From Fistulifera solaris (taxonomy: Eukaryota): a stretch of DNA of 64,000 bases. Shown here piece by piece: positions 42,462-61,225 of the stretch. The stretch is taken from positions 806,001 to 870,000 of the forward strand of contig AP026145.1 in assembly GCA_030295235.1 (NCBI GenBank), written 5' to 3'. The notes under the pieces are model-generated. The model did not search any database. It was not told where the DNA came from and was given only the letters and a program-made list of their open reading frames with translations. Every line of letters starts with the position of its first letter. Position 1 is the stretch's first letter. Made by a program: the position numbers and the translations under genes.

Positions 42462-42886
42462 GAAACAAAGGAAAATTCGAGGCATACTGTATTCACGGCT
42501 CTTGCTCTAAACTAATTGATGATCAACTTAGCCGCTATTTGTTTCTTGAGTTGCGTTGGGCTGCAAAGGCATGACAAACGAGCTGCAGAAAGCTGATGAA
42601 AATTAGAAGCCTGTTAGCTCTAGTACCGGTAGGATAGTCTGCTCAAGTTGATCCGTTAAATACGGAGTAACTTAGCCTCTAATGAATGAGTGACTATAGC
42701 GACTATAGCTTTTAGTGTAAAACATTGTTCAACGAAGACATCGGACTTTAATTAGGAAACGTAAAGAGCACGCCTGTCGACATCCCTTTTTCTCAGCGAG
42801 CGAGAACACGATTGCAAATGCTTGCAGAGAGCGCTGCTTTGCACAATTTATTCCCCATTTTCTCTTTTTGGTGCACAAGACCAACA

Positions 42887-45056
42887 ATGTGTTCAGTAAG
42901 CGATCAGATATCACACTCTTCACCGCTTCCCGTTTCAGTTCGCACCGTTTTACGCGTGCGGCCGTTTCTGAAGAGAGAGCGCGATGATTCTGAAGTTTTG
43001 AAACCGATCGACACATCGACAGTCGTCATGGGGCCGCAGCCAGCGGTTCAAATGCTCTCGCCCTCCTCTGCTCTTGTGAAGCAAACAATAGACCCTGAGA
43101 ACAATCATGATGAAGACTTCTCGTTTGATCTTGTTCTAAGGTCGACCTCGACACAAGAAGACATGTACTTCGCGTTCGGATCCAATATAGCGCAACAAGC
43201 CATGGAGCCATTAAAGGCTTCAAAGGACCACGACAATATCCGCACTTCCTTGATTATTAGCATGGGGCTTTCCAACTCGGGAAAAACGTTTTCTTGTTGG
43301 GGTGATCATTGTCTGTCTACTCAAAAGCTGCCACAGGACGGCATGTTACCTCGCATTTTGGATTCATTATTTGCTCAGTCAGCGCACTTTGTCGAAAAAA
43401 AGCAAGGGCTTTCTTTTGGAGTCGAAATATCGGTCGTTCAAGTGGGCAACCGTGATGGTGTTATCAAAGATCTGCTCAAGTCGTCGTCTCGCCGCTCGAT
43501 TCGCTCGACAATATCGTCCTTTTCTCGTCAACGGAATGTCGACAGCCCCTTTCCAAGTCACAATTCCGTCATGATTGAACAGGATCCGACGTCACTGGAA
43601 TGTAGGCTGAAAAATCAGCAGCGGAAGCTTTGTCTATCATGGGAAGAAGCAAGACTGGCGTTGAAGAAAGCTGCTAAAATCCGACATGACAACGGGAGAC
43701 CTGGCCACGTGCTAGTACAAGCTCGACCCGTCATGGTGAATCGATCGCACAAAATAGTTGAAAAGGGAGGAATGATAGCCATTTTGGAAATGGAGAGTCT
43801 CGATAACGGAAAGAAAATCAGGGCCGGAAGAATCAAAGATACTATTCCCAACCGGACCGATGCATATGGGTCCGTGATGCAATGCCTTCGGGTGGCTCTC
43901 GACAACCAAAATGACCCCATTAATGCAAAGAACGTACCGTTCGTCCAACACAAAGTAACAACGCTACTGCAGTCCATGTTCTCGCCCGAAAATACTGATT
44001 CCACTGACGTGACTGTGCTCGTGACGGCATATCCTGGAGATCGCGATTACATAGAGAAGAAAAGAGCTCCTCAGGGACATGCAGCTTCTTCGCGAAAAAA
44101 GTCGAACAACTCATGTGATTTCTGGAATGTCTACAAGTAGAAGTACAAAAGTGAGCTCGAAGCTAATGGCGCCTATGAGTGCACTAGTCGGAAACATACT
44201 AGTCGTCTTCGAAAACAAAGCCATGACTTCTCTGACGGGGGCGAAAGAAAAGTTAAAGAGGAAAAGGCCGCCAATGAACGAAATAGTTCTGGAAATTTAC
44301 CATCAAGGGTCCTTGCCACCAAAAGCAAGAATCCTCTTGATGTTAATGTAACGATGAAACGATTCGACATGTCAGTCGAAGATGTTGTACCTCTACCGCC
44401 GCCACCTGTTGCTCCTGGATATCGGCCGAGTTCGGCATTGCTTCATCAACGCCTGTCTGAACCACGAATTTTGTCTCCCCGTCGAATGCCAGTTCGCAAG
44501 GCGTCGGCCCCTGTTGAAGAGACGATATCATTTGCCGAGACACGTCTCACTCTCGCTGATTTCCCAGGGGTGGTAGTCCCTCAGAGTCTCGTGCCAAAGA
44601 AAGAGCTCAAAGAAGAAAAAAGAGGTCGAAGATGATGAGAGTTACATTAACCTGATGGAGGACCACGATGAAGGATATCATGTCGGCCAGCAAGAAAAGG
44701 CGCCAGTCGCCTTTTCGACATCTGATTCGGTGCATCTTTCTGATCGCGCTTTCAAGTTTCGGAACACTTTATTAGAAAAGCGGGTAGAATTTTTGAGCGA
44801 AGAAAACGGTTACCTACGAGCTGAGAATGAGAGTATCAAACGTGAGCTGATGTACTTGAAGCAGGAGCTTGAAAATAGATCTAACGTGGAGTTGCGTTGG
44901 AAAGCGTCAAATAGTATAACAAAGGCGCATGCAGAGGAAACTTGTACGTTTGGCCGTCATAACCAACCCTCTTATTCGAGTTCTTCTGGTTCAGGATCCA
45001 CCCGAAGTCACACGAAAGGGCCCTCCGTCTCCGATATTACCAATAGATACCCCTAA
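42887..45056 (+). CDS. Divergent kinesin-like motor protein with coiled-coil tail (several frameshifts)
   Basis: VLRVRPF, FSFDLV, STQEDMY, P-loop MGLSNSGKT, GMLPRILDSLF and VPF..HKVTTLLQ. Switch motifs are degenerate. Confidence 0.7.
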
Positions 45057-45610: not shown

Positions 45611-48251
45611 TCAGAATTCGTAAATCTGTCTACGCCGTTGGCCGGACCAATAGGAGGAGAAGTCTCGTAAGATGACCTTCCGCTTACACGATTTGTCGAA
45701 CCGGTCGGAGGCAGAGCGCCGGGAATCGCAAATCCTCCTACACCTTTGCCATTTGAATTCTTTCCGATGCCGCTTGCCGAAGCAGTTGGAGCCGAAGCAC
45801 TGGAATTTGCGAACCATTAGCCGGGCCAACGGGAGGCTGAGTAGTGCACTTCAAACATCCTGTTACACTTTCAGTCGTCTCAGTTGAGGACAGGGTACCT
45901 CGTTCAGCGCTGTTAACAATACGAGAATCCTTCATGGACTGGTTCTCGGGTAACGCCTCTTCGGCAGAAAGTTGCGTCTCTGAGTTATTTGCCTTTTTCG
46001 AACCATGCGGTCCACTACCATTGTGAGCCAAGGAAGCAGGCATTAGAGCCGTTTACCGCTACCTCTACGGTTTAACACTTGCGTACCTTTGGATCCGTCG
46101 CCGAATCGTAACGGCCCTCCATCCACTTTGACTCGGCATTTTAAACAATTTCAAAACGTCTTGCAATAGAAGCCCAACACAGTTAAATCCGTCTATCGCA
46201 ATAATTTCGTCTCCAGGTCGAAACAAATTGTAAAATTCAGCGAACCCTGGCCTTCCACTTTTCTCACTATACCCTTCAATTCTACACACGCCTCGTTTTT
46301 CGCCTAGTTTGAGAGCAAAACCTTCCCGAAGAAGAGGTAACAAGAAAGTAAGATAACGTGAGTCCGGTTCCTGATTGGGATAGGTCATCGGAAGATGAAA
46401 AGGTGGCGGTTGCCCCGCAATAACTTTACGCGTTATTCGCATGACCTTTGCCCCAAAACCGTTGGGCGCAACCATGAGATTCATAGTTTTTGAATGTCCT
46501 TCTCACATGGCTCTCCGTCGACATGCGTGATTACATCACCAAGATGAATCAAGTTGCAGACTTCAGCGTATCCTTTGTCCCCCTTTTCACCACGAGAGAA
46601 TTCAACGAACTCTACATTTCCGTGCTTTTCTCCGATCTTCATTCTGAAGCCCTCGGAACATACCGGAAGAATAATCTCTAATGAGATAGACGAGCTTGCG
46701 ACAGAGTTTGTTACCTCAGGGGCGGTGGAGGATGCATCGATATCGTCGACGTCATTATCTTTCTCATTTTCGTCGATCTTGTAGTCAGAATCGGAATCTT
46801 CTTTTGTTGAATCGTCGAGCTCTGGTGGAGTCTCCTTGTACTTCCGCTCGTCGTCATCGTCACCATCGGAATACAAATTAACGTAGTCTTGCATTGAAGC
46901 GGGCGATGCATCCATCATTGGATGATTATTTGGAGGAGGCTTTATTGTCGAAGTCCCGTGGCCGTTTGTCAGCATCGAAAGTTCCTTGTGTGCCGCCTTC
47001 AGATGGTGGAGCTTAACATCCATTCGAGGCTTGGCGACAGGACTTGACGACTGCTCATCAAAATGAAGCCGCATGGCAGGCAGATTGTTGGCATTTTGTT
47101 CAGGCGATCTACGTAATCGCGCAGGAGAGTGGTGTGTGCACAAAGTACAGTACCAGTCACCACGGGGAACGACCTCCAGTGGTGGTTGAAGGCATTTTAA
47201 ATGAAACGCTCGACAACATGAATTGCAAACAATAAGGTGACCTCCGTCTTTGCAAATGCAACACTGGTCCGGTTCTTCACGTCGTTCGTTCCTCAGCAGA
47301 TTGTACGCCTCGCGGTTCGCTGTCTTCCATCTGTAGTATTGCACCAACACCGTTTCCACTGGTCGATTCATCAGTCGAGCAGCTTCCCGAAAATCCTTTC
47401 CATGGCCTATGACGGATTCACGACAAAGGCTGTCAAACTTTTTAGATTCTTCCTGACTAAATTCGACAGACAAACCCGGACGCTGTGCAAATATTCTGTA
47501 AAACATTCGTGTTGCTTTTCCTAAATCATAATTCGCGCAATGTAACGCTTCCAACAGTACCATTCTTATGTTGAAGTCGCGTGATTGATTGAGATATTGC
47601 TCTGCGGGAAAACGACGTTCCATGAAGTAAACCCGTCAGACGATGGGATGTGAATCGAACGACTATTACGCACAAGCGAATGAGTTCTCACCGAGTTCGT
47701 GTGCCGGTAGTGCCGCAGCTCTCTGTGGATCCCAGATTTGATCAGTACCTAGATGGGCTAAAGGAGGCTCCTCATTTTCAGTGCTCGAACGGACATCTGC
47801 TTGATACATGGCACCAATTCGAATCGACTTTCTTTCCTCCTCGTTTGCCGACGACTCCTGTTTCGCAGACTCCCTTTCTCCCTCTCCTTGATCGTTTCCG
47901 TCTTTCAAACTTAGCATCAATTTCGTCTTGTACAGCTGCTGCTGGGATCTCCGTTATATCGCAATCAGTGAGACGCATTTCCTCCAAGCGTTTCTTTATC
48001 GAAAGATCTTTCGATACCAAATTTGTTGCCGATGGCAATGACACATCGATGAAAACTTCGTCAAAGCCTGATTTGAGCGGAAGTTGCTCTTTTCTTTCTT
48101 CTACTTTTTCGTCCACTTCTGGTGCATGTGCTGCAGGAGACAGCGCTGCACATTCTCGGTCTTCGAGGCGCCGATTTTCATTAACAGTGGTATCGTAAGC
48201 CACATCCGAAACAAGTCGCCGGGGCGAGCGTCGGTTCGTAGCACCGTTCAT
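45611..48251 (-). CDS. Chromatin protein with ELM2-SANT, PHD finger and two PDZ-like domains (3' end uncertain; frameshifts and an intron)
   Basis: IRIGAMYQADV..QIWDP (ELM2). GKDFREAARLM..VLVQYYRWK (SANT). CCICKDGGHLIVCNSCCRAFHLKCLQPPL..GDWYCTLC (PHD). GDVITHVDG and GDEIIAIDG (PDZ). Confidence 0.72.
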
Positions 48252-50894: not shown

Positions 50895-51964
<1,070 letters not shown>

Positions 51965-52662
51965 GATGATTGTTTGTTGTTTGTTTGCTAAGATAACACA
52001 AAGGCAGAGCGATTGCTTGACTTGGTGTTGTTTTTATTGTGAGTGTAGTTTCGTTTTTTCGCTTCTCGTGCCCAAAAGATCCAAAAATGCGAAGCGTCGA
52101 AACACGAAGAACGTCCAACGAAAATCTGGCAACGGCGCGGAAAAGATTTTGGAGTGCTCGTGACGCAAAGCAGCACCGTTGACGCTTCTCATTTTTGACA
52201 CCACACTTTATCCTATACAACTCGCAAAGTGTATCATTGGTAAGTACCCCTAGAGGGAATGACGACACGACGTTTGGACGAAGGCGGAGCAGGTGCCATG
52301 CAAAATTCCAAATTCCATGTGCTTGCAACAAGGATGTACAAAGACAGGACGACCCAACTCTCGAATCTCGAATGCGAGGTGCGACTTCTTGATCGTAAAA
52401 TGCCCCTCAATCAAACCGCACGCACCTTCAATCGGAATCAGTTGAATACGATTTCGCGTGACGATAGCGATAAGAGAGTAAGAAGAAAAGCGGCCACTCG
52501 TCAGAGTGAACGGGAAGGTCGGCTGCCAAAAGAAGGCTACTTTAACAACACCGTGTAATTTTTAAGGGTACGCAAGTGAGAAAACCGTACTGATTTATTT
52601 CATTAACTTTGGTGATGCAACTCGTGCTTCCAATTACTTTACTGCGCATCATTTTCGTCGCA

Positions 52663-52974
52663 TTAGGGGCAACCTCCGCACTCGAGACGACCCAGAATGC
52701 GGAGAGAGTTCGCCACAGCGTTGCGAAGAGGGGTGTTTCTCCAGCAGCGTTCTTGCGGCTCGGAGATCCCTGGAACACCGTAGTAACAAACACGGTATTC
52801 ATCATCATTGAATCCGCAGGTGAAGCTTTCGCAGTTCTCCAAGACAACTCCTAGCTCACGGGCGGGGCCGACCGCCGATAGATGCGGCTTGTCTTCGACG
52901 GCGACAGCAGTGTGGCTGCTGAGGCCAACCACGGCGAGAATCAAGGCGGAGCTGATGATAGAGAAAGATTTCAT
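52663..52974 (-). CDS. Small secreted 6-Cys protein, paralog 1
   Basis: Signal peptide, DKPHLSAVGPAREL and a Cys-rich core conserved in three copies. Confidence 0.85.
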   Translation of the reverse strand: MKSFSIISSALILAVVGLSSHTAVAVEDKPHLSAVGPARELGVVLENCESFTCGFNDDEYRVCYYGVPGISEPQERCWRNTPLRNAVANSLRILGRLECGGCP

Positions 52975-54064
52975 GATGTTTCTTAAGCGGAGGCGCTTCG
53001 GTTTAAAAAATGAAGATGGGAGATTGTGAAATGAATTTGAGATGGATCGAAAGTAAGTTCTTCGACACTCGTTTCAAAAAGATTGACGTTTTTGTCGATG
53101 CCTTTTTTGAAAAAGATCGATAATCGCATAACGCATTGGAAGAAAGAAGAATGCGATTGAATGTCTGCTACAATCTGTGCGAGAGTAATGGAAAAGGCCC
53201 AAAGATAGCCAATCACGACCCGAGAGCTGGTATTACGAGGTATGAAGTCACAAGATGTAAATCGTGAAATAATGTACTAAAAATTTCGTTGTACGTAGAC
53301 TTAGTACTGCTTAGCAGGTACCTGTGGACATCCTTGTTTTCGCACAAAGTACAAATTGGTCAGCCTTAGCCCTTTCCTAATACGTAGTAACGCCTTAGAC
53401 CATTCACGGACAACGACTACGATACGGCGGGTCACGAGTGAGTCTCGAGCTATGGATGACGATCGAGGCGAAAGCAGCTGTTTTAAATCATTGGGGCCCA
53501 AAGGTCGCCTCAGATCTCAATTAGCATCAGTCAACCATGTTGGCTATCAAGGTCAAGAAGCCGTCTAATGACAGAGTATTGTTTTACAAATGTATTTAAT
53601 GCCATGAGCAAATGAGTAAAGTCGAAAGTGACGATAAGAACTTTCACATCTTCTCTCTGACTCGAATACATCAAGCCTTGATCTGCGTCGTGATTTCATC
53701 GGATCGACTCCATTGCCTCAAATCAATGTATCTATGCGCATCACCCTCGTCGACCTGTGCCAAAGACGCAATCCCGCTTCGACGAAGTAGCCTGCGATCT
53801 CATGAAAGTGAAATTGAAGTAGTTGCCACGTTCCTCTAGTCAGCATGCCTCTGAAAGTAACACCCAAACTAATTACAAAGAAAAAGGCTCATAAAAACAC
53901 TCATTCTAATTACGTTTTTCTGCAAGAACGAAGTTGAAAACAGGCCATCGGGATTTGGCTGAAACCTGACCGATCTCACCCGGTGTCAGCGTCCACTCGA
54001 AAGCTGAATCCAATGTTTCGTCACACACAAATAATGCTTAGCAGTTGGCTCAACACTTGCATGT

Positions 54065-54367
54065 TTAGCAGAAACCACATTCGAGACGACCGAGAATGCG
54101 GAGCGAGTTCGCTACGGCGTTGCGGATGGGGGTGTTTCTCCAGCAAATTTCTTGAGGCTCCGAAATGAAGGGAATACCGTAGTAGCACACACGGTATTCA
54201 TCATCATCAAATCCACAGGACAAGAAGGTCTCGCAGTTCTCCAAGACGATTCCAAGGTCACGGGCCGGGCCGACGGCCGAAAGATGCGGCTTGTCGTCGT
54301 TGGCCGCGGCCAGCTGGCTACTGGCCATGGCAATCAAGGCGGGGACGATGAACGAAAAAGACTTCAT
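54065..54367 (-). CDS. Small secreted 6-Cys protein, paralog 2
   Basis: Signal peptide, DKPHLSAVGPARDL and the same six Cys. Confidence 0.85.
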   Translation of the reverse strand: MKSFSFIVPALIAMASSQLAAANDDKPHLSAVGPARDLGIVLENCETFLSCGFDDDEYRVCYYGIPFISEPQEICWRNTPIRNAVANSLRILGRLECGFC

Positions 54368-55261
54368 GACGCTTCTTGAAGGGTAGTAGTGAGGGAACGG
54401 ATTGGTGGTAATTGCAGAGAATGAGAAAGGTGCAACTTTTTTGAGGGTGATGGCGAAAGCTTATGTTGCTTATTGTTGGTTTGTGCGTTGGTGCTGACTG
54501 GATGTATGTGTGACGCTCACTCCGACTCCCGCAATTTCCGTTCACAATCTTCAAATTTAACGAGTATATAAGTTTATGTAGGAACATCACGAACAGTCGA
54601 AAAAATAGTCAAGACACTACAGACACCCACAAAAGTAGTGATGTGATTGGTTGGATCTTTGGATCCTTTCTAAATACTGTAACTCCTCTGTGAATTTTCT
54701 CGACATTTTTGTTGGAAACTAATTATCCCCTCGTGACTATAGGCGATGATGTGAAGGCATGGTTAAATCTAATGTAAGATGATTATTCTTCGGAGCTTTC
54801 GTCCACGTGAGCGCAGAATGAGTGAAGATTCAAAGTCCCGAATTACATCTAATTGGCAATTGCATGTTGCCTGGAGTGGGGTCGAGCCCAAGCTATGGCA
54901 AACAAGCCGAAATGGGCGACCGATTTAACCAGCAATGCCTGTCTTGTATATTATTGTTAATCCGTAACAAATATGCTAGAGTATGTACACGAGCAATGCA
55001 AGAGAGCAACGCTTCCGATAGGTGCACACAAATTCACAAATAGCACCGATTCATTGCTTTCAACGCCGTGTTGCGCGGGATCCACCTCGTAAACAAGAAC
55101 AAGTCGTACATCAGCCTGTATGCAATACTTCGATCAAAATATTTGCGCTACTTGTAATGACTTATGTAAGGTTTTAAGTTTGTTCAGCCAGATGCTTTAT
55201 TTGTCGAACGTGCAATCGTTAAAGCAATCAAAGGCGTAAGCCGGAATGTAAACCTATGTAT

Positions 55262-55552
55262 TCAAGGGCAGAATCCGCATTCGAGGCGGCCGAGGACACG
55301 GAGAGAATTGGCAAGGGCGTTACGAAGGGGGGTGTTTCTCCAGCAAACTTCTTGAGGCTCGGAAATGAAAGGAATACCGTAGTAGCAAACGCGGTATTCA
55401 TCGTCGCCAAAGCTGCAGCTGAAGGACTCGCAGTTCTCCAAGACAATTCCCAGATCACGTGCGGGACCGACCGACGACAAATGCGGCTTGTCTTCGTTGG
55501 CTGCGGCCATAGCCAAAATCAATGCGGAGCTAAGGATCGTGAGCGACTTCAT
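55262..55552 (-). CDS. Small secreted 6-Cys protein, paralog 3
   Basis: Signal peptide, DKPHLSSVGPARDL and the same six Cys. Confidence 0.85.
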   Translation of the reverse strand: MKSLTILSSALILAMAAANEDKPHLSSVGPARDLGIVLENCESFSCSFGDDEYRVCYYGIPFISEPQEVCWRNTPLRNALANSLRVLGRLECGFCP

Positions 55553-56084
55553 GGTGTATGTTGATTTCTTAATTGTCGAAAAAGTGGGCTTGAAGAGACT
55601 GCCGCGGAAAAAATTGTGACAACTACAAGTGCATCATCGAATCTCGAAATAATGAAGAATTGGATACTCCGCAGCAGTCGCAGCATTAAATGCCAAATGG
55701 ATTTAACAGCGTTCATGGACGAAAAACGTAACAAAAACATTTTTTGTGGCCAAAGAAAAAGCGCTAAGGAAAAGTGGCGAGAACACGTTTTGTGTATATT
55801 AAAAGAAACCTGTGAGTCGTGATTCGTTTATTTGAATTTTTGAATCTTTTATTGCTTGAGCGCGAGTTGCGCACGTTTCGTTTTTGCTTCATCGAAATTC
55901 GATCGAATTATCTCCCAACGAAACAAAGAACAAAACTAGTCGGTGAATAGTGAACAATGGGAGCTCCAATCCTCTTATTTTCCATTTCATCATGGTAGAA
56001 GTCAGTAGGATGGTGTATACGGGCAATTGCCTATCACAGAAAATTATTCTCGGCATTTGAGAACATAAACGAAACCCGTATATC

Positions 56085-56970
56085 ATGTCGGCGCACAATT
56101 TTACTAAAGGACAATATCAAAGAAAGGAAAATAACGATGAACGCGATACTACCATCAAAGCCGCGGAAAACTTGCGCCTTGGAGCCTTATCGTCGTTTGA
56201 GTTCATCAACGGGTGTTTCAACAGACAACACACCTCCCCCTTTCTACAAGCCCTCATGAAAAGCAAAATATCGTTGAATCGACAAACGAAACGTACAATC
56301 GCTTGGTAGACAAGTTACATCACAAACTCCAAGATTTGTATCCCCATCAAAATACTGGGTCGCTATCGCTGGAGGACCTGGTTCGGGAAAAACGACGTCG
56401 GCTATGACGATTGCGCATCGCATCAATACGCGTTGCGACCGCAGTGTGGCGATCGTGATTCCCATGGACGGTTTTCATTATGCGCGTGAGGAACTTATGG
56501 CACAATACGGTGGACCGGATGCTTTACGGCGTCGCGGAGCACCGTGGACGATTGATGCAAACGCCATTTACCAGAAACTGCAAGAGATTCGACAATTCGG
56601 CCGTGCCGATTTGCCCACGTACAGTCGCAAGGAATCGAATCCGGTCTTGGATGGTGTACACGTCGAAATGCATCACCGAATTTTGTTGGTGGAAGGCTTG
56701 TATTTGTTGCATACCCGTGATCCGGCTTGGGCACCACTGGATGAATTTTGGGACGAACGGTGGTTTGTGCTAGCCCCTTCTCGGGACATTCAGATCGAAC
56801 GTCTTTTGAATCGGCGATTACAGACGTGGAGTTTCTCAAAAGCCGAACAATGGGGCACCGGACGCGAAGGCGCCGAGAAACTCGTTCGTTTCAATGATGT
56901 CAAGAACATGGATTTGGTCGAATATTGTGTTGAACGTGCCGATGAAGTTATTGTAACCGTGTCTGATTAA
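56085..56970 (+). CDS. YFH7/PanK/uridine-kinase-like P-loop kinase, copy 1 (frameshifts ~56237 and ~56350)
   Basis: YWVAIAGGPGSGKTT (frame preceding 56404), IPMDGFH, RRGAPWTID and LLVEGLYLL. Confidence 0.82.
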
Positions 56971-57041: not shown

Positions 57042-57821
57042 TTAGTCTAAAGTCTTATCATTATCATCCATTCGATGATAGACACGACATTCCTTACTCC
57101 CCGTCTCAATGATCACGTCGGCACACTCCCGACAATACGCAATCGTTTCCATATTCGGGACATCATTGTACAGGGTCCGTTTCCGGGCTCCTTCCACTCC
57201 GTCTCCCCACAATTCTTTCTTGAGAGAATTCCAGGTCCGGAACGCCCGTTGCACGACTCGTTCGATTTGTTCCTCACGAGAAGGAACTTCCACCCACCAT
57301 CGTTCGTCCCACATTTCTTGCAGGGGTGCCCACGCTGGATCCCGCGTATGCAACAAATACAAGCCTTCTACCAAAATGATGCGATGCGTGTGGGGATCAA
57401 ACGCAATGGCGTCCGGAACGGGACGGGACGTTTCGCGACTGTAATCCGGAAAATACATCCGTTGCTTAGCCTCTTGGGCGTGTCGCAAATCTTGGACCAA
57501 CGCCGTGGTATCAAAGGTAAACGGAGCTCCCTTGCGTCGCAATCCTTCCTCGCCGAATTGTTCCAGCAGTGTGTCCTGTGAACAATGATAACCATCCATG
57601 GGAATCACGAGACAACAATTCGGCTGCAAGGAATTCAAGACGAGTGCGACTTCTCGTGCACAGGTACTCTTGCCCGATCCTGGACCTCCGGCAATGCCGA
57701 CCCAATAGTGTTGGGAATCCTTGGCCCGTTGCCATAACTCGTGAGCCAATTGTTGCAGTGGCTCGTGTGTTTTGTTGTTGGTTTTCGCCCCGCTCGTTGT
57801 TTCTGCTGTCATGGTTGTCAT
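57042..57821 (-). CDS. YFH7/PanK/uridine-kinase-like P-loop kinase, copy 2
   Basis: YWVGIAGGPGSGKST, IPMDGYH, RKGAPFTFD and ILVEGLYLL. Confidence 0.88.
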   Translation of the reverse strand: MTTMTAETTSGAKTNNKTHEPLQQLAHELWQRAKDSQHYWVGIAGGPGSGKSTCAREVALVLNSLQPNCCLVIPMDGYHCSQDTLLEQFGEEGLRRKGAPFTFDTTALVQDLRHAQEAKQRMYFPDYSRETSRPVPDAIAFDPHTHRIILVEGLYLLHTRDPAWAPLQEMWDERWWVEVPSREEQIERVVQRAFRTWNSLKKELWGDGVEGARKRTLYNDVPNMETIAYCRECADVIIETGSKECRVYHRMDDNDKTLD

Positions 57822-58320
57822 GATGAGTCTTTATTAAGGAGAAGAGGTAAGTAACTTGTTTATGTTGCTGTTTAATTTTGTGAGACGAAACACCGCGATG
57901 AATGAGTGTTTCTCCTGTTTGTATGTTCGTTGACGTTCTTATCCCGAAAACCACGGCATTTTCAAAGAACGTGCCTCGAAACGCATCCTCAACAACGCAT
58001 TGACTTGGCTGAATTGCAACGAATGACCTAAGGCAAGTGATGATCTTTCGAATACGTTCGAGAATCTTCGAGAGGAAAAGAAAAAATACGTACAAAGTAG
58101 TAATGCGAGGCAACGCGCTCCCTTTATTGTTTCGTCAAGGCGAGGCAACAAAAGCAATTAAGGTTACGGGTCATTACTAAAAAACATAGTAATAACGCTA
58201 AGACATTTAATGGTTTTGGAGGTACTCAGAACCCGGAGGCAACCGAAAGAAAGGCAAAGGCAACGCGAAAACAACGCAACCTTCCTTTGACTATTCATAC
58301 ATTGATTCTTGTCTTTTCTC

Positions 58321-59391
58321 ATGCAAATTCCTCTCTGGCTAGTCCTTTTCGTCGCCATTCCTGCCCCAAGAACCGAGGCGTTGGCGGCGAAAGGGTTCGG
58401 GAAAACGACAACGAAGAAAGATACAACGAAACATGAACGCTCGCGCCCGTTGAGGATCGTCGATTCGAAGAATACAATAAATAACGAACTGGATAAGTGG
58501 GGATTACCACCTCCAACCGTCGATGATATTTTCCCTCCGTTACCTCCCGAGACGGAATTAAAACCAGCAACGAAGACCCATTATACGTTATCAGAAATAC
58601 AAGCCTGTTTGAAGGATTATATTGATTTACAATTGCATCGATCGTTCGATGAACAAGGTACTGAAATCGCATCTTCCAATCAACAACAACCGATGCAACT
58701 ACATTTATTGCATGAATCACCTCCCGTATTACGCATTGATCATTTTCTGTCACCCGACGAATGTCACGAATTGCAACATTTAGCTACATCGAACAACCAG
58801 GAGGACTGTATTCAAGTCGAATCACAAACCTTCCCCGGCGCCGTGTCTCAACGCACTTCCACATCATGGTTTACACAGTATGCGGCCGTGCCGCAATTTT
58901 TGGCGAAAGCGGTGTATCGTCTCCACATTCCTCTCGAACATATGGAAGAACCGCAGATTGTCCGATATCGTCCCCAACAATTGTTTTCGTGGCATTACGA
59001 TGAAGTCACACCGCAAGCTTTACACAATGGCGGACAACGTCTCATGACGATACTGGTGTATTTGAATACGTTACCAAAGAGTGGAGGCACACTGTTTCGG
59101 GATTTGCGCAATTCTCAACAAGATGAACCGCTCTGTGTCCAACCACAACAAGGTTCTGCCTTACTATTCTTTCCAGCCTTTGCGGATGGTCGACCTGACG
59201 ATCGAACCTTGCATCAAGGACAAGCGGTTGGTGCAGGCTATGAAAAATGGATTGTCCAAATGTGGATTCATCAACGTGAGTATCAAGCGGCGTTACCGCC
59301 GGGGAATTTACAAACGTCCGCTGTGGGTCCCATACAACAAGTCGCGCGGCAGTATGGATACGAGAATGGTGTGGAAGGAAGTACATTGTAA
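58321..59391 (+). CDS. Prolyl 4-hydroxylase-like 2OG-Fe(II) dioxygenase with N-terminal targeting peptide
   Basis: IDHFLSPDEC, RTSTS, EEPQIVRY, WHYD, GGQRLMTILVYLN, GGTLF, TLHQG and EKWIVQMW. Confidence 0.88.
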   Translation: MQIPLWLVLFVAIPAPRTEALAAKGFGKTTTKKDTTKHERSRPLRIVDSKNTINNELDKWGLPPPTVDDIFPPLPPETELKPATKTHYTLSEIQACLKDYIDLQLHRSFDEQGTEIASSNQQQPMQLHLLHESPPVLRIDHFLSPDECHELQHLATSNNQEDCIQVESQTFPGAVSQRTSTSWFTQYAAVPQFLAKAVYRLHIPLEHMEEPQIVRYRPQQLFSWHYDEVTPQALHNGGQRLMTILVYLNTLPKSGGTLFRDLRNSQQDEPLCVQPQQGSALLFFPAFADGRPDDRTLHQGQAVGAGYEKWIVQMWIHQREYQAALPPGNLQTSAVGPIQQVARQYGYENGVEGSTL

Positions 59392-59613: not shown

Positions 59614-60882
59614 CTAAAAGAGATTCAAGTTATCATCATTCAAAGTCTTACGAGATGGTTTTCCTCCCTTGAGTAAGTTTTCGTATTTTCCTCCCGTATA
59701 CACAGCACCCAATTTGGTGATGTTGTTGTACGATAAATTCAAATCCTTGTTGAACGCTAGTACCGTGGACGCATACTTTTGCAACGTGGTGGCTGCTGTG
59801 GGCAAACGATCGGCATCCTTCAACAAGCTGACAATCCAATCATTCTCATCCTTGGGCATTTTGACCAACTCCTGAATGTACTTGTTGAAATTGCGTTCAT
59901 TGATATCATCGGCAGCCAAACGAGCCCCAAATCGCGACTCTTTCGTTCCGAAACTATCCGAGATGTACCAACCATCATCCGGATCTTGGTAATCCGGATC
60001 GGCTTCCAACGCCGCCTGTGCTTCCGCCTCAGCAATGTCTTCGTCCGACAAACGCTTGAACTCCGACATACGTCCCATTTTGCCCCGCTCCCGAAATTTC
60101 GGCTTGGCCGATTGACGCCAATCCTCGGTACTTCGTGCTTTCTCCACGCGTTCCAATGTGTACAGACCACACAACAACGCGATGGTTTCACGATCCGACA
60201 TGCCCGCCGAACGGAACGTATCCAAGATGACATCTTTACTCACCGTCTTGCCATTGAACAGATCCAATGGCAAGGCCGCATTGACGGGCGCATTCTTGGG
60301 CGTATCCATGCGCCCCAACTGCACCACTAAAATGGGTCCTCCCACCGATTCAATCGCTTCCGCACCCGCAATCGCCACCGCATCGGGCAACGAAATGGCA
60401 TTCTTTTGTCGCAAAAACTTTTCCGTTTCCAAAATAACGACGGCCGCTTTTTGCAAATTCGTCATGTACTCGTCACTGGCCGGTGCTTTTTGGCCGAGGA
60501 CTTGAAAGAGAATGGTCCCATCGGGTCCGTACTTGTCCGTTTTGGCTTGATACGACAACCCATCTAACAAGCTGAGATGATAGAAGGAAGGCGCTAAGGA
60601 CGGATTTTCCAAAATCGCCCGACGGACGCGTTCTTTGACACTGTCGACAGCACTGACACGCAATTCTTGATCTCCGTACATGGCTGGATCGAAAAAGACT
60701 TGTGCGTTGGCCTTGGTAGAGACAACTGCAGCAGCACCACCGATGCATCCATGGATCCAATTCCGACGCGAAAGCATCGCATCGAGTTGTGTGATCGATG
60801 TTCGAGTCGTCGGCGACGGCGTAAAGGCACTCGTTGTTGTTGTTACAACGAGCAACCAAGTGAATTGCCGAATCAATCTCAT
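59614..60882 (-). CDS. Thylakoid lumen 29-kDa ascorbate-peroxidase-like protein (TL29/APX4-like, catalytically degenerate)
   Basis: Signal+TSAF presequence, twin-Arg LSRR and ANA lumen cleavage. LSLLDGLSY..GPDG, ISLPDAVAIAG and VQLGRMD peroxidase-like motifs. Confidence 0.78.
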   Translation of the reverse strand: MRLIRQFTWLLVVTTTTSAFTPSPTTRTSITQLDAMLSRRNWIHGCIGGAAAVVSTKANAQVFFDPAMYGDQELRVSAVDSVKERVRRAILENPSLAPSFYHLSLLDGLSYQAKTDKYGPDGTILFQVLGQKAPASDEYMTNLQKAAVVILETEKFLRQKNAISLPDAVAIAGAEAIESVGGPILVVQLGRMDTPKNAPVNAALPLDLFNGKTVSKDVILDTFRSAGMSDRETIALLCGLYTLERVEKARSTEDWRQSAKPKFRERGKMGRMSEFKRLSDEDIAEAEAQAALEADPDYQDPDDGWYISDSFGTKESRFGARLAADDINERNFNKYIQELVKMPKDENDWIVSLLKDADRLPTAATTLQKYASTVLAFNKDLNLSYNNITKLGAVYTGGKYENLLKGGKPSRKTLNDDNLNLF

Positions 60883-61225
60883 GTTGACCGAGCTCAAAGT
60901 ACTATGTGTTATAACGAAGTAAAGACCGGTCGTCTTTCCCTTTCAATAAGGAAGGAAGTAAGAAACAAATAATAGAGATGCCAGCTGCTCTTATGCCATG
61001 TCAGAAAGGTTGACACAGACACAAAAATCGGATGTTTTCGTTCGAGGTTTTTGGGAGGTGACATGCCGACGACTGACGTAGCGAAGTGGCGAGACTCGCA
61101 ATACTCGTGATTTAAAAAAAGCTAGACGCACGACACTTATACGGACAAACAACAAAGTAAAAATCAATCACTCCTTAGTGGGTTATGCATAATTTCGTTT
61201 CATTTCATGATTGTGCGTTTGTTTG

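Follow-up and report, generated by a model that had tools for sequence, protein, structure and literature searches.

Three tandem genes for six-cysteine, RxL-bearing putative pre-pro-peptides of a putatively secreted, lineage-restricted family in the diatom Fistulifera solaris

Diatom biosilica-associated proteins typically carry a signal peptide and, behind it, a stretch that ends in R-X-L (RXL), as described in three reports (PMC5525289, PMC5647440, PMC5501833) that also record the removal of RXL domains in silaffins. In silaffins, silacidins, cingulins and SAPs, the short R-x-L-ended stretch behind the signal peptide is a reported or proposed cleavage site, according to PMC5525289 and PMC5647440. 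The SiMat7-like proteins combine a signal peptide and an RXL motif with eight conserved cysteines and a transmembrane domain (PMC5501833), and the silicanin Sin1 and its kind are described with 18 cysteines in the Sin1 NQ-rich domain, a length of ~400 amino acids and a C-terminal transmembrane helix (PMC5501833, PMC5525289). Here, we describe three small genes (A, B and C) with a similar N-terminal layout on contig AP026145.1 of Fistulifera solaris (GenBank assembly GCA_030295235.1), within a stretch of 64,000 nucleotides (positions 806,001 to 870,000 of the forward strand), which we call the window and number from its first letter. The reading we favour, to which we give about an even chance, is that the three genes are paralogues retained over a long time and that they belong to a secretory pre-pro-peptide family restricted to the lineage of Fistulifera-like raphid pennate diatoms, with a 62-amino-acid extracellular domain that is putatively released at an RXL site.

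The trio resembles the RXL-domain proteins in having a signal-peptide-like N-terminus and then a short stretch ending in R-x-L, and no sequence similarity to the RXL-domain biosilica proteins was found in a profile search of 5.8 billion proteins or in a scan of 1.84 billion representatives. With the SiMat7-like proteins and silicanins it shares a putative signal peptide and RXL site, conserved cysteines and an apparent restriction to diatoms; however, the members of its family have six cysteines, a length of ~100 amino acids and no second hydrophobic stretch. Elsewhere in the clade of stramenopiles, alveolates and Rhizaria (SAR), the PEXEL (Plasmodium), TEXEL (Toxoplasma) and RxLR (oomycete) motifs also place R-x-L some tens of residues behind a signal peptide, and PEXEL is cut after the Leu (Arg at P3, Leu at P1), the register proposed here for the trio. 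These motifs mark parasite effectors that are exported into host cells, whereas the trio carries no host-targeting hints, and its G-I/V-V after RxL is unlike RxLxE/Q/D or RxLR. Plant peptide ligands such as RALF and EPF are likewise pre-pro-peptides of ~100 amino acids, from which a conserved Cys-rich C-terminal part is freed at a basic/Leu site, and they form strongly conserved, multi-copy families. In contrast to this similarity of plan, Pfam and fold searches gave no sequence or fold similarity between the trio family and RALF or EPF.

The initial annotation of this locus had described a trio of intronless, same-strand genes encoding 96–103 amino acids. Open reading frame (ORF) calling from ATG to stop under the standard code, with ATG starts, returned exactly three such ORFs, all on the minus strand (Table 1), and alignment of the three proteins reproduced the consensus reported earlier, with 79–81% identity, 68 invariant columns and six invariant cysteines. 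In all three proteins R-[ED]-L follows VGPA (VGPAR[ED]LG). A 355-base contig from an RNA library runs colinear with the genome across gene A, which agrees with the absence of introns. By tblastn with the three proteins, genes A, B and C were the only copies in the window, the next best match having E = 0.1; weak matches at 35.7–36.1 kb and 40.5–41.3 kb (E 0.1–2) were taken as chance. The observation of a trio is confirmed, and its conservation is far beyond chance expectation.

Relatives of these genes are few. A word-seeded search of 5.8 billion proteins returned 13 relatives of gene B, and a profile built from 16 members, run against 5.8 billion proteins, gave 20 clusters in all. HMMER, run exhaustively over 1.84 billion representatives at 50% identity, yielded six matches, three of which were true relatives; P0016 was set aside as a 10-fold tandem trefoil-like repeat protein (a repeat artefact), and P0017 and P0018 as repetitive junk ORFs. 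A single relative carries an organism name, the F. solaris hypothetical protein FisN_7Lh356, which has 92% identity to gene B. P0009 and P0012 lie together on one contig, as do P0014 and P0023, and clustering of family copies therefore recurs beyond the window. No longer or fused forms were found among 7,998 scored candidates, which is weak evidence. A scan of JGI metagenome contigs gave seven loci, all of them chance matches to bacterial sensor proteins with 'VCYYGIPLI' or to a short, out-of-context 'CWRNTP'. The literature on diatom cysteine-rich secreted peptides yielded no description of this six-cysteine family, nor was a paper found for the F. solaris locus tag, supplementary tables lying outside both searches. 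The family appears to be undescribed and lineage-restricted, and to be of a known general kind, that of Cys-rich pre-pro-peptides for secretion in which the diatom RXL layout is present. Orphan families of secreted Cys-rich proteins are common in eukaryotic genomes.

All 20 members open with a hydrophobic 11-mer (Kyte-Doolittle maximum 2.0–3.2, starting at residues 3–8) followed by small residues (AxA), and the N-terminus is therefore signal-peptide-like. None of the 20 has a later stretch above 1.6 on the same scale, and they therefore have no transmembrane segment or membrane anchor. Diatom plastid targeting follows the ASAFAP rule; in genes A, B and C the residue after the putative cleavage point is non-aromatic and the following stretch is acidic, which argues against import into the plastid.

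Behind this N-terminus, G-P-x-R-x-L is invariant in 20/20 members, and the end of RxL lies 34–44 residues from the start Met. In genes A, B and C a 16-residue segment ending in R-[DE]-L precedes the remainder of the protein, and a cut after its Leu would leave exactly 62 amino acids with six cysteines in 3/3 genes, as the initial annotation had proposed. That annotation had also named RxL as a processing motif of diatom pro-proteins, and the papers cited above do describe a signal peptide plus a short RXL-ended stretch as the usual layout. Both x positions of the motif vary (A/E/D and D/E/Q/K), and distant members retain just [VIL]GPxRxL, with the preceding residues replaced (PEALPTSH, AEITESH, SAAISP). 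This pattern of an invariant core with variable x positions and divergent upstream residues fits a protease recognition site. In alveolates, plasmepsin V and ASP5 use the P3-Arg/P1-Leu register on PEXEL and TEXEL motifs, and this shared register makes a secretory aspartyl protease a candidate for the enzyme that cuts at RXL, a lead rather than a result. A subtilisin-like protease is another candidate.

The domain behind RxL is defined by its cysteines. The spacing C-x3-5-C-x7-10-C-x13-C-x21-C-x2-C holds in 20/20 members, and the other positions that are invariant among them are C-Y-x-G, N, L-R, R and C-G-x-C. The putative mature peptides of the window have an isoelectric point (pI) of 4.4–4.9, a charge of -2.3 to -4.3 at pH 7, no Lys and 3–5 Ser per 62 residues, and their relatives have 0–2 Lys. 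Structures were predicted in two AlphaFold2 runs, one for gene B with 16 sequences and one for gene C with 20 sequences. The core is the same in both models and consists of a beta-hairpin whose loop is long, a helix of 12 residues and, near the C-terminus, a short strand. In the gene C model the strands span residues 52–57 and 67–72, the helix 75–86 and the last strand 90–92, and the predicted local distance difference test score (pLDDT) of the residue 51–96 block is 83–86; in the gene B model the core block has a pLDDT of 74–84 and the residue 45–100 block 58–84. Between the signal-peptide end and RxL, RxL included, pLDDT is below 50 (residues 28–41 in gene B, 13–37 in gene C), and RxL lies in the sole long low-confidence stretch of both models, which is compatible with an exposed linker.

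No named family was recognised in the initial annotation, and wider searches agree: Pfam, PDB sequences, Foldseek and VIA-align gave no match. With a limit of E ≤ 10, Pfam returned nothing for the 16/16 members searched beyond scattered sub-threshold rows, and none of the three window proteins matched a family. Those rows, to DUF1509 (E 0.21), DUF5746, OATP and RM6_Med14, each involved 1–2 of the 16 members, fell below the cut-offs and were discarded. A profile search of PDB sequences gave no matches at E ≤ 10, and with neither model did Foldseek against the PDB reach E ≤ 0.001. When both models were compared with 48,161 chains by VIA-align, the best Z was 3.4, to generic beta-beta-alpha-beta pieces (ribosomal L30-like, ACT/NIL-like), which we regard as noise. 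In the ESM Atlas the best score for the whole protein, 0.79, was within the chance range, and the mature part gave no usable match.

A DNA alignment that included flanks of 200–300 nt confined nucleotide conservation to the coding region, from ATG to stop, and the flanks were unalignable, in line with the earlier description of diverged intergenic DNA around a near-invariant remainder. No 8-mer was common to all three upstream (400 nt) or to all three downstream (300 nt) regions; candidate promoter or untranslated region (UTR) motifs were merely A/T-rich 7-mers in positions that did not correspond, and were rejected. We estimated synonymous divergence (dS) and the ratio of non-synonymous to synonymous divergence (dN/dS) from Nei-Gojobori counts, taking the part after the signal peptide as DKPH to the end. 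For this part dN/dS was 0.104 for the pair A–B (dS 0.79; 25.5 synonymous and 13.5 non-synonymous differences), 0.113 for A–C (dS 1.04; 30 and 19) and 0.072 for B–C (dS 0.96; 27.5 and 11.5), and in the signal-peptide part it was 0.44, 0.15 and 0.51, respectively. Purifying selection, as claimed in the initial annotation, is thus borne out by values of 0.07–0.11 after the signal peptide. Independent support for constraint comes from variant copies in public sequencing runs: a variant of gene A (runs X1 and X2) differs at 10 listed codons, 8 of them synonymously, and a variant of gene C (run X2) differs at 17 listed codons, 15 synonymously, with both replacements in the signal peptide.

Such low dN/dS at a dS of 0.8–1.0, close to saturation at synonymous sites, marks the three copies as old duplicates under strong constraint rather than products of recent amplification for dosage. 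In a maximum-likelihood tree of the 20 members, P0001 (F. solaris) and P0002 join gene B with a support of 100/98, while A and C fall elsewhere. The duplication is therefore older than the split between gene B and its counterpart from F. solaris. The suggestion in the initial annotation that the genes are kept at high dosage fits these results poorly, given the age of the copies, their unalignable regulatory DNA and the placement of gene B; the old split and the tree argue instead for long-retained paralogues whose regulation has evolved separately.

Contigs from four public runs, drawn from three studies in total (X1 and X2 being from the same study), bear on transcription; as the evidence from each run consists of contigs, levels are not rankable. 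Contigs of run X1 cover the whole 3.5 kb and behave like genomic DNA, and X2 supplies contigs for genes A and B as well as for a close variant of gene C. Runs X2, X5 and X6 have no contigs on the stretches between the genes, a gap to which we attach no evidential weight. The 355-base contig mentioned above comes from metatranscriptome X5 and is identical to positions 52650–53004 (0 differences), so that it contains the entire coding sequence of gene A with 30 nt upstream and 13 nt downstream; further contigs over gene A extend to 53025. Gene B is covered by contigs at 54116–54442 (0 differences) and 53909–54224 (1 difference), the latter being the 316-base contig of run X6 on its 3' end and downstream region. 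A 512-base contig of the close gene C variant (X2) aligns to 55129–55567 and has a loose end of 24 T at 55129; read as the poly(A) tail of a minus-strand mRNA, this end would give a 3' UTR of ~130 nt. Together, these contigs support transcription of the trio, short of proof. One X5 contig joined 54202 to 55462 (parts of genes B and C), with 65 unrelated letters between them and 6–7 differences on each side; a splice reading was rejected, and the contig most likely represents a related paralogue from another organism.

The runs also contain second versions of two of the genes. That of gene A, at 52718–52885, has 15 differences in 168 bases and is present at about half depth in the DNA-like run X1, and that of gene C, at 55129–55567, has 23 differences in 439 bases. 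These suggest a second haplotype or a homoeologous copy of the array, in which case the copy number of the organism would probably exceed three.

If the favoured reading holds, the hydrophobic N-terminus would take the chain into the endoplasmic reticulum, where signal peptidase would cut after AxA, and the six invariant cysteines would form three disulfides in a compact beta-hairpin/helix/strand domain. A diatom 'RXL' protease would then cut the flexible 16-residue segment after the Leu of G-P-x-R-x-L and free the 62-residue domain, beginning G[IV]VLENC, from an N-terminal layout like that of silaffins, cingulins, silicanins and SAPs. The freed domain may act outside the cell by binding a conserved partner. 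Even at saturating dS the paralogues have kept almost all of the domain surface, and this, combined with a charge that is not conserved across the family and an acidic pI in the window, points to recognition of a specific conserved partner, and argues against membrane attack, silica precipitation or an arms-race role.

Among possible roles, the leading although tentative proposal is that of a cell-wall or cell-surface component or ligand that does not precipitate silica, ranked first because the layout of signal peptide and RXL has so far been tied to cell-wall proteins. A diffusible peptide signal comes second and is less probable. Bolder, and clearly on the improbable side, is the proposal that the family represents a new fold-level class of ribosomally made extracellular peptide signals of raphid pennate diatoms (for example a cell-cell, mating or wall-morphogenesis cue) released by the RXL protease that matures silica proteins; were it true, diatoms would have their first known peptide ligand encoded by a gene, and RXL processing would be a general pathway resembling that of pro-hormones. 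Diatom secreted proteins beyond the silica-forming ones are poorly known, and a compact, conserved RXL-bearing peptide outside the classical silica proteins would offer a clean, easily assayed substrate for finding the RXL protease. Should it prove to be a ligand or part of the cell wall, diatom cell-surface biology would gain a new protein family and possibly a small disulfide fold that is also new; should it be an ordinary lineage-specific secreted protein, the gain would lie in annotation only, where it would displace 'hypothetical protein' and a 'chitin-binding' label that is probably wrong.

Several observations weigh against release of an extracellular domain at RxL. The mature parts of RXL-domain proteins such as silaffins and cingulins are Lys/Ser-rich, of low complexity and silica-precipitating, whereas the trio has a compact six-cysteine domain with few Ser and no Lys, and the link between RXL and biosilica proteins may itself reflect merely where people looked. 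The signal-peptide boundary was read by eye, after A-V-A in gene A and A-A-A in genes B and C. The structural models are of medium confidence, with mean pLDDT of 63.8 (gene B) and 67.0 (gene C), and net charge varies across the family from pI 4.4 to 9.2, the upper value being reached by distant relatives. For runs X1, X2 and X6 the 'RNA' label is a guess, an RNA library may contain DNA, and the evidence from each run consists of contigs. Finally, the nine closest members conserve KPHLSxVGP as strictly as they do the mature part, and one would not expect this of a spacer that is removed.

This last point also favours the strongest competing explanation, in which the proteins are secreted and left unprocessed, and G-P-x-R-x-L with KPHLS forms a flexible N-terminal tail of the mature protein that serves as a binding epitope or sorting signal. 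A lone RxL tripeptide is, moreover, common by chance. Retention of [VIL]GPxRxL alone in distant members is a better fit to a protease site than to an extended epitope, however, and the layout is the same as that of processed diatom proteins, so that we consider an unprocessed tail unlikely and continue to prefer release of the 62-residue domain.

Less probable again is a role in defence, as an antimicrobial, defensin-like or protease-inhibitor peptide directed against bacteria or parasites. Small size, six cysteines, secreted-looking proteins and tandem copies would all suit such a role, and the top ESM Atlas row was a fungal 'Antifungal protein' cluster (0.79), although it tied with an unnamed cluster and fell within the range of shuffled sequences. 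Strong purifying selection and near-identical paralogues at saturating dS are unlike arms-race genes, the window peptides are acidic and lack Lys, and there was no fold match and no Pfam match to defensin, Kazal or antifungal families (16/16 members, E ≤ 10). Defensin-like peptides are cationic, with a CxxxC in a helix paired to a CxC in a strand; in contrast, the trio is anionic, spaces its cysteines 3–5/7–10/13/21/2 and has no Cys in the predicted helix (residues 75–86 of gene C), so that 'defensin-like', as offered in the initial annotation, describes these acidic peptides poorly. Its speculation that DDEY might allow Tyr sulfation is similarly weak, as the acidic context is lost in distant members (RDRY, KNTY, QEAY, KIRY).

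We regard metal binding as very improbable. Two short Cys pairs at opposite ends of the domain, C-x3-5-C and C-G-x-C with its invariant Gly, could in principle form a Cys4 zinc knuckle pair or a redox-active CxxC, and the zinc-binding human papillomavirus (HPV) E7 CR3 domain was among the weak fold matches (Z 2.3–2.4, within noise). Against this, a hydrophobic N-terminus suggests passage through the secretory pathway, where conditions are oxidising, the fold matches do not rise above noise, and Pfam gave no His/Cys ligand pattern of a known zinc family.

Least probable of all is a chitin-binding type-2 (peritrophin-A/CBM14) domain protein, a small extracellular six-cysteine module to which the UniRef name of the F. 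solaris member ('Chitin-binding type-2 domain-cont...'), the six cysteines and the production of chitin by some diatoms would point, since Pfam CBM_14 (PF01607) matched 0/16 members at E ≤ 10 and 0/3 window proteins, the first and last Cys-Cys gaps are 3–5 and 2 where those of the peritrophin-A consensus are at least about 11 and at least 4, a 12-residue helix is present in both models, and, less conclusively, no chitin-binding chain was among the matches listed in four fold searches with these medium-confidence models. The UniRef label on the F. solaris member is accordingly not supported, and release of a partner-binding 62-residue domain remains the reading we prefer.

Table 1. Positions in the window of the three genes and of their putative parts (gene coordinates count the stop codon).
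Feature	Coordinates	Strand	Description	Basis
Gene A pre-pro-peptide	52663..52974	minus	103 aa	ORF list
Gene A putative pro-segment	52852..52899	minus	residues 26-41, VEDKPHLSAVGPAREL, ends in RxL	invariant GPxRxL; equivalent segment pLDDT <50 in both models
Gene A putative mature domain	52666..52851	minus	62 aa, six Cys, pI 4.86	
Gene B pre-pro-peptide	54065..54367	minus	100 aa	ORF list
Gene B putative pro-segment	54254..54301	minus	residues 23-38, NDDKPHLSAVGPARDL	G33, P34, R36 and L38 invariant; residues 28-41 pLDDT <50
Gene B putative mature domain	54068..54253	minus	62 aa, six Cys, pI 4.44	
Gene C pre-pro-peptide	55262..55552	minus	96 aa	ORF list
Gene C putative pro-segment	55451..55498	minus	residues 19-34, NEDKPHLSSVGPARDL	G29, P30, R32 and L34 invariant; residues 13-37 pLDDT <50
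Gene C putative mature domain	55265..55450	minus	62 aa, six Cys (C41, C46, C56, C70, C92, C95), pI 4.60	

Other genes lie on both sides of the trio. Directly downstream of gene A, a glyceraldehyde-3-phosphate dehydrogenase is encoded at 50895–51964 (minus strand) in two ORFs that carry Gp_dh_N and Gp_dh_C, a split that is consistent with one short intron near 51516–51565. On the other side, a convergent pair of paralogues, another local duplication, adjoins the trio at 56278–56970 (plus) and 57042–57830 (minus), with 53% identity over 178 residues and an identical stretch of 18 residues; the first of these matches Pfam PRK (phosphoribulokinase/uridine kinase family) at E 8e-7. Farther out, 3–5 kb from the trio, are ORFs with a 2-oxoglutarate (2OG)-Fe(II) oxygenase domain (58306–59391, plus; PF13640, E 8e-12) and a haem peroxidase domain (59614–60942, minus; PF00141, E 3e-17). 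A kinesin motor-domain ORF (42752–44140, plus) and a PHD-finger ORF (46481–47635, minus) look like ordinary eukaryotic genes and are consistent with a nuclear diatom chromosome.

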